In this document: positions 58,137-64,000 of the stretch, one piece after another | How positions within the stretch are numbered: the first letter of the stretch is position 1 | How the letters are laid out: the number at the start of each line of letters is the position of its first letter | Notes under the pieces: generated by a model | The model's database searches: none | The model's input: only the letters and a program-made list of their open reading frames with translations | What the model was told of the DNA's origin: nothing | NCBI GenBank assembly: GCA_963809895.1 | Contig: CAWELD010000003.1 | Coordinates: 2,080,001-2,144,000 of the forward strand | Length of the DNA stretch: 64,000 nt | Reading direction: 5' to 3' | Source of the DNA: an uncultured Gemmatimonadales bacterium | Lineage (GTDB): Bacteria; Gemmatimonadota; Gemmatimonadetes; Longimicrobiales; Gaopeijiaceae | Translations under genes and position numbers: made by a program

Positions 58137-58997
58137 CTACGCCGTCCCCCCCTCTTCGCCCATGATCCCTTCCATGGCGGCCTCCAGCGCCCGACGCAGC
58201 TCGGCCGCGGTGGCACCCATGTGGAAGGCGGCCACCGCCACGGGCCGGAGCAGGCCCTCCAGCGCCTCCCGACGCTCCGAGCGCGAGGCATCGCTCCGGC
58301 CGGGCTCGGCCACCCGGGTACCCCGGGCGCCCTCGGTGACCACCACGCCCAGGCGCTCGAGCTCGGTGTAGGCCCGGGCCACCGTCCCGGGGGCGATGTC
58401 CAGCTCGTCGGCCAGGCGCCGCACCGGCGGCAGGCGCTCGCCGGGTGTCAGCGCGCCGGTGGCGACGCCCTCCCGCACGCGGGAGACGATCTGCTCGTAG
58501 ATGGACTCGGACGAGGTGTCGTCGATGCGAACGCGGAAGCGGCCCCGTGGCGGCTCGGCGCCCGCGACCCCGCGCAGCTCGAGCGTCAGGCTGCGGGCAG
58601 CCTCCGGCGTCACACCGAGCGTCCGCAGCACGTTGGCCGCGATGCCCTTCTCTTCTCGCAGGAGTCCCAGGAGAATGTGCTCCGTGCCTACGTGTGCCTG
58701 ATCGAGCTCCCGGGCGGCGGCCATGGCCAGCTCCAACACCTTCTTGGCCCGCGACGTGTAGGGAAGCTCGCCCAGGGCCGGGCCGGCTGAACCGCGCCGA
58801 ACCGCGGCCGCGACCCGCTTGCGCACCTCCTCGGGGTCCACACCCAGCCGGTCCAGCACCTCGTTACCCACGCCGCCGGCATCCAGCAGCCCGAGCAGCA
58901 TGTGCTCAGTTCCCACGTAGTCGTGCCGGAAGCGCACGGCCTCCTCTCTCGCCCGCGCCAGCGACAGCCGCACACGGTCCGTGAAGTTGTACTTCAT
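58137..58997 (-). CDS. Clp N-terminal (repeat) domain fused to a YtrA-type GntR winged helix
   Basis: About 143 N-terminal aa: FTDRV...YVGTEHMLLGL...YTSRAKKVLE...VGTEHILLGLLRE; then IYEQI...G.L.PGERLPPVR.LA.EL.IAPGTVARAY.ELE..G......GT.V and a short C-terminal helix pair; single uninterrupted ORF; GAGGGG RBS before ATG 58997. Confidence 0.88.
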   Translation of the reverse strand: MKYNFTDRVRLSLARAREEAVRFRHDYVGTEHMLLGLLDAGGVGNEVLDRLGVDPEEVRKRVAAAVRRGSAGPALGELPYTSRAKKVLELAMAAARELDQAHVGTEHILLGLLREEKGIAANVLRTLGVTPEAARSLTLELRGVAGAEPPRGRFRVRIDDTSSESIYEQIVSRVREGVATGALTPGERLPPVRRLADELDIAPGTVARAYTELERLGVVVTEGARGTRVAEPGRSDASRSERREALEGLLRPVAVAAFHMGATAAELRRALEAAMEGIMGEEGGTA

Positions 58998-59051
58998 CGA
59001 GCCCCCCTCAATCTTGTACCAGTCTTCTTGGAACATGACGATGCTGCGCTC

Positions 59052-59074
59052 TTGTGTCAACTACATTGATACAA
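59052..59074. promoter_or_regulatory. YtrA-type GntR operator palindrome
   Basis: TTGTGTCAA-ctaca-TTGATACAA (8 of 9 arm positions match; TGTG-N13-TACA) about 55 nt upstream of the ClpN-GntR gene. Confidence 0.7.
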
Positions 59075-59196
59075 AGAGACCCTCCGCGGTGCTCCGCAGC
59101 TTGCTCCGCTGACGCTCTCCCACCCACCTTGCGGGGTTCCCGCGTCGTGGCCCGCCACGCTCTCGTTGACGTTCGAACATCCCGCTGGAGGCCTTC

Positions 59197-60081
59197 GTGA
59201 ACTGGTCCGAGATCCTCTCCGTCGCCGACCGGATCCTGCAGTACGAATTCCACATCGGGGGCCAGGCGGTAAGCGTCCTCGACCTGGTGATCTTCGTGGG
59301 CATCCTCATGCTCACCTGGATCGTGTCGAGGCTCATCCGCCGCGGGTTGCAGGGCGTCCTGGACCGGCGCGGGGTGGACGATCCCGGGACCGTGGCGGTG
59401 ACGACCCGGATTCTCCACTACGCGATCATGGCGGTGGGGCTCCTGACAGGGCTCTCGCAGATCGGCATCAACCTCTCCGCCCTGTTCGCCGCCGGCGCCG
59501 TGTTCGCCGTGGGGATCGGCTTCGCGCTGCAGACGCTGTCGGAGAACTTCGTCTCCGGCGTCATCCTCCTCATCGAGCGCTCCATCAAGCCCGGTGACAT
59601 CCTGGAGGTCAACGGCGAGGTCATCCGGGTGCAGCGCATGGGAATCCGCACCACCATCGGCCGCAACCGGGACGACGAGGAAATCATCATCCCCAACAGC
59701 ACACTGGTGAGCACCGCGGTCACCAACTACACGCTCCAGGACTCGATCATCCGGATCCGGGCCGCGGTGGGCGTGGCCTACGGATCCGACATGAAGCAGG
59801 TCATGGACGTGCTCCGGGAGATGGCCGATGGACTGGAGTGGCGGCTGGGCACCTACGATCCCGTCGTGCTCCTCACCGACTTCGCCTCGTCGTCGGTGAA
59901 CTTCGACGTGTCGGTCTGGATCGCGGACCCGTGGCGGGCGCCCCGGCGCCGCTCGGACCTCATGCACGGCGTCTGGAACGCCCTCGCCGATGCGGGCATC
60001 ACCATCGCCTTCCCGCAGGTGGACGTGCATTTCGACCGTCCCTTCGAGGAGGCGCTCGACCGCCTTCCCAAAGCGTCCTGA
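59197..60081 (+). CDS. Small-conductance mechanosensitive channel (MscS family)
   Basis: GIGFALQ...NFVSG.ILL.ERSIKPGD, IIIPNS, VGVAYGSD, GITIAFPQ. Confidence 0.93.
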   Translation: MNWSEILSVADRILQYEFHIGGQAVSVLDLVIFVGILMLTWIVSRLIRRGLQGVLDRRGVDDPGTVAVTTRILHYAIMAVGLLTGLSQIGINLSALFAAGAVFAVGIGFALQTLSENFVSGVILLIERSIKPGDILEVNGEVIRVQRMGIRTTIGRNRDDEEIIIPNSTLVSTAVTNYTLQDSIIRIRAAVGVAYGSDMKQVMDVLREMADGLEWRLGTYDPVVLLTDFASSSVNFDVSVWIADPWRAPRRRSDLMHGVWNALADAGITIAFPQVDVHFDRPFEEALDRLPKAS

Positions 60082-60093
60082 GGAGCACCGGAC

Positions 60094-61587
60094 ATGGGCC
60101 CCAGCGACGTTCTCCGGGATCTGGAGCTCCTCCTCCGCTCGGGCCACGGGCTGGTGCAGCTCGAGGCGCGAGACGAGGCGCGCGCCGCCACCCTCCTGGA
60201 GCTGGTGGCGAACCGCCTGGAGATCCCCTTCCTCACCTGGACCCGCTCACGGGGATTGCTCCGGCGTGACATGCCCTCGCCGGTGTATGAGACCGAGCAC
60301 CTGGAACAGGCGCTCACCCATGTCGTGCACGCCGACATCGATGCGCTCTACCACTTCCAGGGCGTCAGCGGAGAGGCGCTTCGTGGCGAGCTGATCGCGG
60401 CCCTGGTGCGAGACGCGGCCCGGGCCATGGAAGGCCGAGTGGGCGCCATGGTGATGACCGGTGGAGCCCTGGCGCTGCCGGAGTCACTCGAGGGTCTGAG
60501 CACCACCGTGCGACTCCCGGGCCCTTCGACCGACGAGCTCCGGGCGCTGCTGGGCCAGGTCGTGCGCGACGTCTCGCAGCGCCAGGACGTGAAGGTCAGC
60601 CTGTCCCGCGAGGAGACCGCACAGCTCCTCCGCCAGCTCTCGGGACTCACCCTCACCGAGGCCGGCAAGGTGCTGACGCGCTCCATCGTCGAGGACGGGT
60701 CGCTGGACGCCGGCGACATCGCCAACGCCGTCGAAGCGAAGCGGCGCATCGTCGAGCGTGACGGGCTGCTGGAGTACTACCCGGTGGAAGCCTCGCTGGC
60801 CGACGTGGCGGACCTGACGGGCTTCAAGGGCTGGCTCGCCGCGCGCACGGAGGTGGTGCGCCATCCCGCACGAGCGCGCGAGGCCGGCCTGCCCTTTCCG
60901 CGGGGCGTGCTCCTGCTGGGCGTGCCCGGCTGTGGCAAGAGCCTGTCGGCCAAGGCCGTGGCGGCCGAGTGGCAGATCCCCCTGCTGCGCCTCGATCCCG
61001 CGGCTCTCTACAACAAGTACATCGGCGAGAGCGAGCGGAACTTCAAGCGCGCCATGCACACCGCCGAAGCCATGGCCCCGGTGATCCTGTGGATCGACGA
61101 GCTGGAGAAGGCGTTCGCGGCCGGCGGCACCGAAGACGGCGGCGTGTCGCAGCGCATCCTGGGCACCTTTCTCTCGTGGCTCCAGGAGCGGAAGGGCGAC
61201 GTCTTCGTGGTGGCCACCGCCAACGAGGTCCAACGGTTGCCCCCGGAGTTTCTCCGCAAGGGTCGCTTCGACGAGGTGTTCTTCGTGGACCTTCCGGACT
61301 CCGCCACCCGCAAGGAGATCTTCCGGATCCACCTGGCCGCCCGGGATCAGGACCCCTCGGCCTTTCCGCTGGCGGAGCTGGCCGCCGCCAGCGAGGGCTT
61401 CAGCGGCTCCGAGATCGAGCAGGTGGTGGTGTCGGCGCTGTACGATGCCTTCGCCGACCACGGCACGCTCTCCGGCTCGATGCTGGAGGCCGAGATCGCC
61501 CGCACGCGCCCCCTGTCCGTGACCATGGCGGAGCCCATCGACGCGCTCCGTCGGTGGGCCCAGGGGCGTACCGTCGGCGCCAACTGA
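60094..61587 (+). CDS. AAA family ATPase (Ycf46-like)
   Basis: Degenerate N-terminal module plus GVPGCGKS, WIDELEK, ATAN...LPPEFLRKGRFDE.FFVDLP, GFSGSEIE, PLS.TM.E.I..LR.W. Confidence 0.88.
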   Translation: MGPSDVLRDLELLLRSGHGLVQLEARDEARAATLLELVANRLEIPFLTWTRSRGLLRRDMPSPVYETEHLEQALTHVVHADIDALYHFQGVSGEALRGELIAALVRDAARAMEGRVGAMVMTGGALALPESLEGLSTTVRLPGPSTDELRALLGQVVRDVSQRQDVKVSLSREETAQLLRQLSGLTLTEAGKVLTRSIVEDGSLDAGDIANAVEAKRRIVERDGLLEYYPVEASLADVADLTGFKGWLAARTEVVRHPARAREAGLPFPRGVLLLGVPGCGKSLSAKAVAAEWQIPLLRLDPAALYNKYIGESERNFKRAMHTAEAMAPVILWIDELEKAFAAGGTEDGGVSQRILGTFLSWLQERKGDVFVVATANEVQRLPPEFLRKGRFDEVFFVDLPDSATRKEIFRIHLAARDQDPSAFPLAELAAASEGFSGSEIEQVVVSALYDAFADHGTLSGSMLEAEIARTRPLSVTMAEPIDALRRWAQGRTVGAN

Positions 61588-61680
61588 GAGCATCGCTGCG
61601 ACGACACCCTTGCGTTGCGCGCGTTTTCGGTTTTTATTCGCCCCTACCCACAACGTTCTCGCACGAGGAGGAGGATGAGG

Positions 61681-62175
61681 ATGACGTCAGGAGCGGAGCT
61701 GCTCGCCGAGTTCGATCAGGAGATGGCCAACACGCGCAAGGCGCTGGAGCGGGTACCCGACGAAAAGCTGTCCTTCAAGCCCCACGAGAAGTCCTACAGC
61801 CTGCTGGAGCTGGCCTCCCACGTGGCCAACCTCCCGACCTGGACGTCGGTGACCCTGACCACCACCGAGCTTGACCTGGACGAGCCGTGGGACCGCCAAT
61901 CCCCCGAGAGTCGCGAGGAGATCCTGGCGGCTTTCGATACGGCGGTGAAGGAGGCGCGGCCGATCCTGGAAGCCGCCAGCGGTGAGGACATGCAGGTGAC
62001 GTGGACGCTGAAGAGCGGAGATCAGGTCTGGTTCAGCCTCCCTCGGGGCGCGGTGTTCCGGTCCTTCGTCATGAGCCACATGATCCACCATCGCGCGCAG
62101 CTCACCGTCTACCTGCGCCTGCTCGACGTGCCCGTGCCTGGCATGTACGGGCCCTCGGCGGACGAGGCGCAGTAA
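61681..62175 (+). CDS. DinB/YfiT family protein
   Basis: FKPHEKS.SL.ELASH, SHMIHHRAQL.VYLRLL.VPVPGMYGPS; GAGGAG RBS. Confidence 0.9.
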   Translation: MTSGAELLAEFDQEMANTRKALERVPDEKLSFKPHEKSYSLLELASHVANLPTWTSVTLTTTELDLDEPWDRQSPESREEILAAFDTAVKEARPILEAASGEDMQVTWTLKSGDQVWFSLPRGAVFRSFVMSHMIHHRAQLTVYLRLLDVPVPGMYGPSADEAQ

Positions 62176-62205
62176 CGAGCCGACCTCTCCTGGCGGGCCG
62201 CCGGC

Positions 62206-62907
62206 TCACACCGGCGGTCCGTCCACGGGCTCGATGAGCTCCGGCCCCTCGTTCGCCGGACGGTTCACCGTGGTCGCCACCGGCCACGCCTCCAACAGGT
62301 CCTCCGGCGCCGGCCGCAGCAGATCGCCCAACTCCTCGAGACCGGCGTCGGGCCGCAGCCACGACCGGCACGCCTCGTCGTCGGGGAGGATTACGGGCAT
62401 GCGGTCGTGGAGCCTGGACATCCAGCGGCTCGGACGGGTCGTGAGAAGCGTGAAGGTCACCACGGGATCCCCGCCCTGGCGGGGCCGCCAGCGCTCCCAC
62501 AGACCGGCGAAGGCGAAGGGTCGGCGATCGGGCTGGTGGATCCAGTACGGGATCTTCCGCGACCCCGAGGCGTCGTCCAGGCGGCGCCACTCGTAGAACC
62601 CGTCGGCGGGCACCAGACAGCGCCGCTCGGCGAAGGCGTCGCGAAAGGCGGGCTTCGAGGCCGCGGTCTCGCTGCGCGCGTTGATGAGGCGATTGCCGAT
62701 GGAGAGGTCGTCGGCCCACGCGGGCACCAGCCCCCAGCGCATGAGCCCCAGTCGCCGCTCGTTCTCGTTGCCCAGGATCACCACCGGAGCGTCCTGGGTG
62801 GGCGCCAGATTGTACCGGGGCTCCCAGCGGTCGAAGGCCACGTGCGCCGGATCGAAGACCTCGATGAGCTCATCGGTGTCCGCGGCCAGGGTGTAGCGTC
62901 CGCACAT
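62206..62907 (-). CDS. SOS response-associated peptidase (SRAP/YedK, abasic-site protection)
   Basis: MCGRY N-terminus (Cys2), RYNLAPTQ, WGLVP.W, INARSET, GFYEW, HDRMPV. Confidence 0.95.
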   Translation of the reverse strand: MCGRYTLAADTDELIEVFDPAHVAFDRWEPRYNLAPTQDAPVVILGNENERRLGLMRWGLVPAWADDLSIGNRLINARSETAASKPAFRDAFAERRCLVPADGFYEWRRLDDASGSRKIPYWIHQPDRRPFAFAGLWERWRPRQGGDPVVTFTLLTTRPSRWMSRLHDRMPVILPDDEACRSWLRPDAGLEELGDLLRPAPEDLLEAWPVATTVNRPANEGPELIEPVDGPPV

Positions 62908-62909
62908 CC

Positions 62910-64000
62910 TCACCGGCTCCCGTCGCCGCGGGGCTCGCTCACGCGCTGCCGCAGTACCACCAGCCAGTCACCGTCCTCTTCGTGGCGACGGTACCCCAGC
63001 AGATGGAGGATCTGGAGCGCGTACCACCGGGCCACCCGCCGGTTCACCACCAGAGCACCGGGCCGGGAGGGGTGCCGACGGATCCCCGGAAGCCAGTGCA
63101 CGACGCGGGCGAGGCCCAGGCGCCGCATGGCCTGCGACACGTTCAGCCAGAACGGGCGGAACTCCCGGACCACGAAGAAGCCGTCGTCTCCCTGCACCTG
63201 GTACAGGGGCATGAGGATGCGACCCGACTCCGGTGCCCTGATGGGGCCGTCCTGGTCGTGGGCCAGGACCTCGCCCCGCTGAACGCGCTGGAAGTTGTGG
63301 TAGTCGGGCTGCATGCGGAATCCATCGCCGGGGCTCAGGGGATGCCGATAGCGCATCTCCAAGACCCTCGGCCCTTCCCTGCCCTCCCGCGCCAGCAGCT
63401 TGCGCGCGGGGGGCAGTTCCGGCACCGCGGCCTCCGGCAGGATGCCGGTGGCAGTGAGCATGATCCAGATCGCCGCTTCGGCTCGATCCACCGCCAGCGG
63501 CTCTTCGTGCTGACCCGCCTCGAACGCCAGCGAGATGCAGCCACGGCGACCGACGAAATCGTGGAGGGTACCCTCCACCAGCTCCTCGAGACCCAGCACG
63601 AGAGGCACCGGCAGCGTGAGCGCCAGGCTGCGATTCTCCAGGGTGTCCGCAGCGGTGGAGAAGGCGCCGCCCCCGCCGGACGTGGTGTGGAGGTCCAGGA
63701 GGTAGATGGGACCCTTGGCGCTCTCGAGCAGGGTGGTGATCCGGGTCAGGAGCTCCCGCTGCTCCCGGTCCTCGGGCACCTCGCCTCCAGGCACGCCGTC
63801 CCGGAGGCCCGCGACGATGTCCTCGGTCCAGGCGCGGTTCAGGTCGCGCCCCAGGTAGCGTCGGCCCACGGCCAGCGCCTGGCGGTTGCCGGTCAGGAGC
63901 ACCACGCGCCCTCGAAGCCGGTCGCGTCGTGCCCGCAGCGACGCGGCCACGCGGACCGCGGCTTCCACGCCCGCGGGCTCGTTTCCGTGAAGCCCCCCCA
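62910..64000 (-). CDS. M14-family succinylglutamate desuccinylase/aspartoacylase-like protein (5' end outside window)
   Basis: GGLHGNEPAG read at 63999-63970, then GN, RDLNR, LDLHTTS, FEAGQH. Confidence 0.85.
   Translation of the reverse strand, partial: GGLHGNEPAGVEAAVRVAASLRARRDRLRGRVVLLTGNRQALAVGRRYLGRDLNRAWTEDIVAGLRDGVPGGEVPEDREQRELLTRITTLLESAKGPIYLLDLHTTSGGGGAFSTAADTLENRSLALTLPVPLVLGLEELVEGTLHDFVGRRGCISLAFEAGQHEEPLAVDRAEAAIWIMLTATGILPEAAVPELPPARKLLAREGREGPRVLEMRYRHPLSPGDGFRMQPDYHNFQRVQRGEVLAHDQDGPIRAPESGRILMPLYQVQGDDGFFVVREFRPFWLNVSQAMRRLGLARVVHWLPGIRRHPSRPGALVVNRRVARWYALQILHLLGYRRHEEDGDWLVVLRQRVSEPRGDGSR

Follow-up and report, generated by a model that had tools for sequence, protein, structure and literature searches.

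In layout, the closest described system is ClpC2 of actinobacteria, a repressor of its own gene that acts from one or two palindromes placed on the -35 and -10 elements (PMC10030653). ClpC2 is released by cyclomarin, rufomycin and casein carrying phosphoarginine (pArg), but not by plain casein (PMC10030653; 10.64898/2026.06.30.735635); pArg-proteins detach it from DNA, of the pArg pockets it keeps pocket 1, where helix 1 begins, and mycobacteria have no known arginine kinase (10.64898/2026.06.30.735635). Regulators of the YtrA subfamily of GntR proteins are defined by a winged helix and, behind it, a stretch of about 50 residues that forms two helices (PMC6746942, PMC4494728). Double operators are rare in their regulons (PMC4494728), and one of them, the S. 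salivarius repressor MbrR, is switched by protein capture rather than by a small ligand (10.64898/2026.02.18.706565). In ClpC itself, T7, R9 and E106 form pArg pocket 1, which is the most relevant for pArg activation of the S. aureus protein, E32 belongs to pocket 2, K85 at the hydrophobic groove is contacted by cyclic peptides and by MdfA, and a K85-D356 contact anchors resting ClpC (PMC12583610). Here we describe a gene that joins parts of the last two systems. It lies in a 64,000-nucleotide stretch (the window) of contig CAWELD010000003.1, positions 2,080,001 to 2,144,000, from an uncultured Gemmatimonadales bacterium, and its single open reading frame (ORF) fuses a Clp N-terminal domain to a YtrA-type GntR regulator. 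Judged from sequence, the fusion is separate in origin from ClpC2. With moderate confidence we consider it an autorepressed ClpC N-domain sensor and sponge that would work much as ClpC2 does.

The gene and its product (P0001) consist of the following parts.

58137-58997, minus strand: ClpN-GntR fusion gene, 286 amino acids (aa), from ORF, Pfam and homologue search
59002-59009, minus strand: Shine-Dalgarno-like GAGGGGGG, preceding ATG 58997
58569-58991, minus strand: two-repeat Clp N-terminal domain, residues 3-143, from Pfam and structure matches
58974-58982, minus strand: one half of pArg pocket 1, T6/R8; the other half, T105/E106, is at 58680-58685
58743-58757, minus strand: one half of pArg pocket 2, T81/R83, with groove residue K85; the other half, T30/E31, is at 58905-58910
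58539-58568, minus strand: flexible linker, residues 144-153, from the AlphaFold model and the family alignment
58302-58538, minus strand: GntR winged helix-turn-helix, residues 154-232, with the Pfam GntR match at 167-229
58161-58283, minus strand: two C-terminal helices (239-279), a YtrA-type dimerisation module with the predicted homodimer interface

Read on the minus strand, the ORF has its best start at ATG 58997 and its stop at 58137. The database record of the gene (P0002) has 299 aa, compatible with a start at ATG 59036; this annotated start is probably a miscall, because it falls within the -10 element and the second operator described below. Pfam detects two Clp_N repeats (E-value 1e-31) and GntR (8e-14) and no AAA+ module, and sequence matches to solved structures assign residues 4-143 to ClpC N-domains (5hbn, 2e-31) and residues 159-280 to short GntR proteins (4ham, 3by6, 6sbs). 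In the AlphaFold model, a linker predicted with low confidence (145-151) joins a Clp-N fold to a winged helix, behind which come two C-terminal helices (239-259 and 264-279); mean predicted local distance difference test (pLDDT) values are 89 and 91 for the two folds. All three lines of evidence agree with the architecture proposed earlier from the letters alone (the sequence-only reading), a two-repeat Clp N-domain and a YtrA-type GntR in one ORF without AAA+. An alignment to the native ClpC, which that reading called for, gives 65% identity between the fusion N-domain and the N-domain of the single clpC of the same genome. Modelled as a homodimer, the protein scored 0.59 against 0.02 for the best control, with at least 83% contact agreement between runs and pLDDT of about 80. 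In calibration, 20 of 30 solved pairs reached the mark applied, as did 1 of 23 single chains, and the pass may reflect likeness, since YtrA dimers are already among solved structures; no N-domain contacts were named in this model. No longer form of the GntR part was found among proteins of 502-2000 aa, which is weak evidence.

The architecture is not confined to this genome. Both Clp_N and GntR are carried by 118 of the best 120 homologues (of 4328), the gene itself included. The 117 two-domain proteins among the 119 others, together with full-length fusions in named contigs of metagenome-assembled genomes (MAGs), rule out a chimera of this assembly, a possibility raised with the original proposal. 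An ESM Atlas cluster of 196 members, automatically named and mostly from Gemmatimonadota, has both domains. When one genome per species was retained, 48 of 80 loci belonged to the fusion lineage, and by their titles these are Gemmatimonadota except for one Myxococcota MAG and one unclassified entry. The taxonomic spread is patchy: the fusion was found in 11 of 400 Gemmatimonadota genomes, with all 11 genes being fusions, and in 4 of 60 close relatives. One of the 11 carriers is the unpublished genome G211, which enters the counts given below for McsB in carriers, operator matches, ClpC signatures, topology and codons. No NCBIfam model reaches its cut-off for the protein; the Rv1152 model scores 67 bits against a cut-off of 170.

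Two palindromes and a promoter precede the gene.

59052-59074, unstranded: putative operator O1, palindrome TTGTATCAA-N5-TTGACACAA (minus strand), containing the -35 hexamer
59014-59036, unstranded: putative operator O2, 38 bp from O1, overlapping the -10 hexamer and the likely transcription start
59055-59060, minus strand: putative -35 hexamer TTGACA, within O1
59032-59037, minus strand: putative weak -10 hexamer CATGTT, 17 nt past the -35

The two palindromes cover the -35 and -10 of the fusion gene itself, a layout that would fit autorepression. O1 had been proposed as the gene's own operator; it is real and conserved, and the genome holds no other copy of it with three or fewer mismatches. 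The second operator and the overlap with the promoter had been missed. Conservation was assessed on 51 sequences (48 family loci, L083, L002 and the window), 8 of which lacked a full N-domain or upstream DNA and were dropped, leaving 43 with one duplicate. The pattern TTGTWYCA-N7-TGRYACAA occurs upstream of the fusion at least once in 40/43 promoters and twice in 31/43, most commonly at a spacing of 38 bp, and elsewhere in the same loci in 4 of 1346 windows, one of the four being the promoter of a tandem copy. This first count leans high because the pattern was derived from these very loci; a stricter recount without the duplicate gives at least one site in 35/42 promoters and two in 30/42. 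The upstream site carries TTGACA in 35 of the 41 promoters that have a site, and 31 of these 35 have an A2/T6 hexamer 16-18 nt further on that extends into the second site. A generic repeat finder did not detect the operators. A matrix trained on 39 other promoters (threshold 14 bits) and run over the 5.33 Mb genome retrieved O1 and O2 alone (37.2 and 24.6 bits), with scores below -12 in the regions upstream of mcsA and clpC.

The targets of the regulator appear to end at its own gene. Among the operator matches listed for the carrier genomes, matches lie directly 5' of the fusion in at least 12 of 14 carriers, and every perfect match listed is at a fusion gene, while matches with up to two mismatches were no commoner in the 14 carriers than matches to a reversed-pattern control. 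No regulon beyond the fusion gene was found with the matrix over the genome or among the matches listed for the 14 carriers. The sequence-only reading had offered a ClpC decoy as its second idea, and this negative result favours it over a stress regulator with downstream targets. Since control is probably limited to the gene itself, a sensor and sponge role for ClpC binders is likely. A stray palindrome at locus L149, dropped from the set, precedes a dnaN-like gene.

What lies behind the operators points the same way. No conserved neighbour partner was found over the 51 sequences, in which neighbour ORFs were called with a simple codon score; the largest neighbour cluster covers 6 loci at varying positions, and Pfam searches with 22 chosen neighbour proteins show unrelated downstream genes. 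With no conserved neighbours, the one visible product of induction would be the fusion protein itself. In three Longimicrobium loci a stand-alone Clp_N gene, encoding a proline-rich N-terminus, follows the fusion at 24-34 nt.

L054, 1089-1577: stand-alone Clp_N gene behind the fusion
L058, 2011-2490: stand-alone Clp_N gene behind the fusion
L059, 5643-6137: stand-alone Clp_N gene behind the fusion

Locus L034 (3880-5900) has two fusion genes in tandem behind one operator pair, and the protein P0201 is a double-N-domain fusion with four Clp_N repeats and GntR. As followers and tandems supply Clp N-domain, induction appears to yield more of it. A further multi-copy fusion locus, L076:4896-6903, is fragmented, being frameshifted or poorly assembled.

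The similarity to ClpC2 that was noted at first extends to the autorepression layout, with two operators on the -35 and -10. Both proteins join a Clp N-domain without AAA+ to a DNA-binding domain that serves dimerisation in ClpC2 and is predicted to do so in the fusion, both have a palindromic and often double operator on their own promoter (the own gene being the established ClpC2 target), and both keep the groove residues and usually one pArg pocket, ClpC2 being the one described to be released by pArg-proteins (10.64898/2026.06.30.735635). ClpC2, however, has an N-terminal four-helix bundle and a C-terminal Clp domain, whereas in the fusion the order is reversed and DNA would be bound by a GntR winged helix. 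The operators differ (CGTCAAC-N5-GTTGACG in ClpC2, TTGTWYCA-N7-TGRYACAA here), as does the pocket retained, which is pocket 1 in ClpC2 and mostly pocket 2 in the fusion family. The fusion N-domain, at 65% identity to Gemmatimonadota ClpC, is distant from ClpC2 (E-values 2e-8 to 3e-13), and the fusion hosts encode the arginine kinase McsB, whereas no such kinase is known from mycobacteria. By DNA-binding fold, domain order and operator, the fusion is not a ClpC2.

With the YtrA subfamily (B. subtilis YtrA, MbrR and Rv1152-type proteins) the fusion shares the winged helix with a two-helix C-terminal module, a long palindrome with GT/AC far from its centre (23 bp here, about 24 bp there) and the autoregulatory position. 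GntR proteins normally start with the helix-turn-helix; YtrA proteins do so and have 120-130 aa, whereas the fusion has 286 aa and a putative N-terminal sensor domain of 150 residues. It also has a double operator and no ABC operon, of which a YtrA regulator is typically the first gene. In a quick tree, 41 fusions group by their GntR halves on a branch of their own, apart from 34 stand-alone relatives (SH-like approximate likelihood ratio test, SH-aLRT, 98). Residues 160, 163 and 222 of the GntR domain are acidic in 39/41, 27/41 and 33/41 fusions, respectively, a family-specific feature, and mostly non-acidic in the stand-alone relatives, 26 of 34 of which have Arg or Lys at wing position 222. 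The host also has two canonical YtrA genes (G000:C4:178183-178572 and C10:217261-217623), both with an ABC-ATPase-like ORF behind them; upstream of the C4 gene lies a palindrome of its own, of different sequence. Acidimicrobiia (L090-L092, L095, L108) contain stand-alone GntR relatives that share the recognition-helix motif and are preceded by a similar palindrome, TGT...TGATACA; they are a candidate donor lineage for the GntR half.

Alternatively, the N-domain might take the place of the ABC ATPase by which canonical YtrA repressors are captured, serving as a handle that draws the repressor to McsA/McsB, ClpC or aggregates, where it would be inactivated or degraded, with no sponge involved. 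MbrR is switched through binding to its ABC ATPase MbrA (10.64898/2026.02.18.706565), the fusion lacks an ABC partner, position 222 is mostly acidic in the fusions and mostly basic in stand-alone relatives, and a flexible linker suits capture more than allostery. A switch requires an output, however, and the only output found is the fusion gene; we regard this explanation as improbable.

The third comparison is with the ClpC N-domain of the McsA-McsB-ClpCP pathway (B. subtilis, S. aureus). The fold is the same, the N-domain model superposing on solved ClpC N-domains with a template modelling score (TM-score) of 0.85-0.93, and the pockets and K85 are present; unlike ClpC, the fusion lacks the ATPase (two AAA+ modules), the M-domain and the ClpP-binding part, and its N-domain evolves much faster. 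Mycobacterial ClpC3 and plastid ClpT are free Clp N-domain proteins with binder or adaptor roles, and ClpT1/2 are among the fold matches of the fusion N-domain; the fusion differs from them by its DNA-binding domain and self-regulation. As the sequence-only reading supposed, the architecture appears uncharacterised: no description of a Clp_N-GntR protein was found in the full-text literature, a scope that left out most subscription journals and preprint supplements. 'Clp' is absent from the main text of PMC4494728, and Clp_N terms are absent from four supplementary files of PMC5882156.

The host genome (G000, 5.33 Mb, 95% complete) encodes the pathway itself, as had been proposed for checking. 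An mcsA-mcsB-clpC operon lies at G000:C3:1091114-1095297 and ends with the single clpC (1091114-1093612). The McsB homologue (E-value 1.5e-61) has intact NEEDH and CPTN motifs and is a predicted arginine kinase, and McsA has four CxxC. CtsR was not found in the host genome or in any of the 101 phylum genomes searched. Replacement of CtsR by the fusion at mcsA-mcsB-clpC was considered and is ruled out for this genome, in which no operator was found there. No paper on McsB-ClpC, or on the control of this operon, in Gemmatimonadota was found in the full-text literature, mostly without subscription journals.

The proposal that the fusion reads pArg was based on FTDR, YTSRA and two GTEH motifs, all of which are present in P0001. 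Of the pocket residues, T81, R83 and T31 are further assigned to pocket 2 and T105 to pocket 1. All eight pocket residues and K85 are kept in P0001, and the eight are invariant in 29/29 ClpC of the host's order. The family is less uniform. Of 41 genome-locus fusions, 10 have an intact pocket 1, 23 an intact pocket 2 (32 under a relaxed definition, T81, R/K83, E31) and 35 an intact groove set (L13, Y80, K85, L88, E89). Among 148 proteins the numbers are 70, 117 and 134, with a basic residue at position 85 in 145, and among the 37 most divergent they are 7, 18 and 28. Pocket integrity and the presence of McsB agree with the original proposal for P0001. Set against 29/29 for both pockets in ClpC, the frequent loss of pocket 1 in the family, the partial retention of pocket 2 and the better retention of the groove around K85 weaken a specifically pArg-reading sensor.

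In its strict form this explanation holds that pArg-tagged proteins fill the pockets and release the repressor, which would make the gene a readout of McsB activity. The two intact pockets of P0001, the retention of pocket 2 (117/148, and 102/117 closest homologues), McsB in 14/14 carriers, CtsR in 0/101 genomes and the ClpC2 precedent speak for it. Against this, McsB occurs in 99/100 other phylum genomes irrespective of the fusion (11/400), so that co-occurrence is not informative; R8 is replaced by E or D in 31/148 proteins; the divergent representatives keep pocket 1 in only 7/37 and pocket 2 in 18/37; and the lack of an operator at mcsA or clpC means that the fusion is not a CtsR substitute there. 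A dedicated pArg sensor is therefore, in our estimate, rather unlikely.

The better retention of the groove invites another explanation, a narrower form of the sensor and sponge, in which the N-domain is bait for foreign ClpC hijackers such as actinobacterial cyclic peptides or phage-encoded adaptors. Groove binding would derepress the gene, the protein would soak up the attacker, and pArg would be minor. The groove and K85, contacts of cyclic peptides and MdfA (PMC12583610), outlast both pockets, and three fusions are followed by stand-alone Clp_N genes that have kept the aromatic-80, K85 and E89 positions and lost pockets 1 and 2. The pattern of occurrence is that of an accessory gene (11/400 genomes, 4/60 relatives, an unfixed neighbourhood, tandem copies), and the N-domain evolves far faster than that of ClpC and carries one of two lineage-specific ClpC signatures. 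Several observations do not fit: position 80 is Tyr, and F80Y cuts antibiotic binding about 10-fold (10.64898/2026.06.30.735635); F2 of mycobacterial ClpC1 aligns with K2/N2; the literature search found no attacker of Gemmatimonadota ClpC; and E31 (42/42) and T81 (38/42) are kept, a conservation that a role of the groove alone would not clearly require. We regard the defence decoy as unlikely.

The sensor and sponge that we prefer would work in four steps; repression, ligand binding, release and the sponge role are inferred. First, the YtrA-type half is predicted to dimerise through its two C-terminal helices, and the dimer, bound to the two palindromes over the -35 and -10 of its gene, would keep that gene nearly off, as the conserved layout suggests. 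Second, the tethered N-domains would display the surfaces of host ClpC, namely the K85 groove and one or both pArg pockets. Third, accumulating ClpC N-domain ligands (McsB-phosphorylated unfolded proteins, in which a pArg comes together with an unfolded stretch, or else adaptors or peptides that hijack ClpC) would bind these domains and detach the repressor, either through loss of an N-domain-dependent assembly across both operators or by pulling it onto bulky ligands; release is proposed because of the analogies with ClpC2 and YtrA sequestration. Fourth, as the fusion gene is the sole conserved target, the output would be more N-domain, which would titrate ligands off ClpC until their level falls and repression resumes. 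As the main ligand, pArg-tagged or unfolded proteins stand at close to an even chance, foreign ClpC-binding peptides or phage proteins are a less likely candidate, McsA/McsB or another adaptor is quite unlikely, and something else more unlikely still. A latch is a speculative addition: K85, or a pocket, could meet the acidic residues at 160/163/222, as K85 meets D356 in resting ClpC. The contact is proposed because acidic residues make it in ClpC and ClpC2, and neither models nor covariation support the docking.

Several observations weigh against this scheme. The predicted template modelling score (pTM) of the full-length model is 0.54, or 0.59 with a deeper alignment, so that no fixed arrangement of N-domain and GntR is predicted; the spacing from G128 to D159 across the linker ranges from 21 to 79 residues in the family, and inter-domain covariation did not rise above intra-domain noise. 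Taken together, these results leave allosteric coupling not evident. Mean identity within the family is 40% for the N-domain and 66% for the winged helix, 6/41 fusions lack both pockets even on relaxed criteria, and the pocket that the family keeps (2) is not the one most relevant in S. aureus ClpC (1). A consensus promoter scanner did not call the fusion promoter, because its -10 is weak. A weak or degenerate second target would escape the matrix search, and the genome is 95% complete.

Rapid divergence of the N-domain bears on one more explanation, a plain autorepressor in which a chance duplication of the clpC 5' part added oligomerisation or nothing and is now structural or decaying. In the 10 closest pairs the ratio of nonsynonymous to synonymous rates (dN/dS) of the N-domain is 0.13-0.82, always below 1, with several dS values near saturation, and end branches in the N-domain tree measure 0.2-2.1 for fusions and mostly below 0.1 for ClpC. 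The value of 0.82, reached in one lineage, and relatives that look broken or lack the N-domain (L070, L074, L076, G036) would be expected of decay. Yet dN/dS is 0.13-0.31 in 6 of the 10 pairs, the two-repeat domain, the groove and the two operators are retained across two orders, and a purely self-repressing gene is not expected to persist. This explanation is very improbable.

As to its source, the best reading is that the N-domain derives from Gemmatimonadota ClpC, in view of identity and shared signatures; the trees contained ClpC from this phylum and from no other. Within the phylum, 18 diagnostic sites separate ClpC into two types, and fusions tend to carry either set. A single clade was rejected by the approximately unbiased (AU) test (p-AU 7e-5) for 20 fusions selected by diagnostic sites, a set that includes G211 and the possible assembly chimeras P0015 and P0004, and it was not rejected (p-AU 0.08) for 20 of the 41 genome-locus fusions selected by similarity. 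The GntR tree requires three changes of ClpC type. Repeated capture of the N-domain is plausible from these results, which are suggestive. Combined with the decoy, it gives a scenario that we hold to be doubtful, in which a ClpC N-domain was copied more than once onto one YtrA-type lineage and foreign ClpC hijackers trip a self-amplifying sponge. Ongoing gene conversion from the host clpC left no DNA-level sign in 11 genomes, where codons shared with the own clpC do not exceed those shared with a foreign one. The first ~80 residues of P0015 and P0004 are nearly identical to Gemmatimonadales ClpC; these two proteins are either assembly chimeras or products of recent conversion.

Other proteins with Clp_N repeats were seen in the searches. 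Many proteins of 300-1700 aa, among them P0122, P0126, P0128, P0038 and P0048, show 4-8 or more Clp_N repeats as their sole Pfam domains, DinB being added in P0241 and UVR in P0245 and P0221; they are possible multivalent binders of ClpC ligands. An ESM Atlas cluster of 88 members, commonest in Cyanobacteriota, combines Clp_N (100%) with an ArsR-type HTH_20 domain (99%) and is a lead towards a possible third Clp-N transcription-factor fusion.

At its own locus the fusion gene stands isolated, as first noted, with a divergent mscS upstream, a convergent amidohydrolase downstream and no ABC transporter. The mscS gene may be an additional target at this locus, and it is not a conserved neighbour among fusion loci. 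Beyond mscS, an AAA ATPase, a DinB-family gene and an SRAP peptidase (60094-62913) have the character of ordinary stress-related genes and are unlinked to the fusion at other loci. Among the contig pieces listed, near-identical DNA contigs cover the promoter and N-domain (X3, 58806-59078; X1, 58832-59054), none crosses the N-domain/GntR junction, and one RNA run has a near-identical contig, solely over the start of mscS. This RNA-library contig (run X14) corresponds to 59159-59427, the 5' part of mscS, with two differences, and may be of DNA origin.

ClpC2 has so far been the sole described transcriptional sensor with a Clp N-domain, and it occurs in organisms without a known arginine kinase. 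The fusion family appears to assemble that circuit anew out of unrelated components, and it does so where McsB is near-universal (99/100 genomes of the phylum) and CtsR was not found (0/101). It thereby becomes testable whether Clp-N repressors sense pArg stress or, instead, phage proteins and antibiotics directed at ClpC. Natural variants with two, one and zero pArg pockets behind one operator type provide a comparison set, and the fusion gene with its 60-bp promoter could serve as a compact reporter that responds to ligands of the ClpC N-domain. The results also point to a McsAB-ClpC pathway in Gemmatimonadota that awaits study. If the scenario of repeated capture and a self-amplifying decoy were true, the family would be a biosensor for undiscovered ClpC-targeting molecules and, together with ClpC2 and the cyanobacterial Clp_N-ArsR cluster, would make Clp-N one-component sensors a class that has arisen repeatedly.

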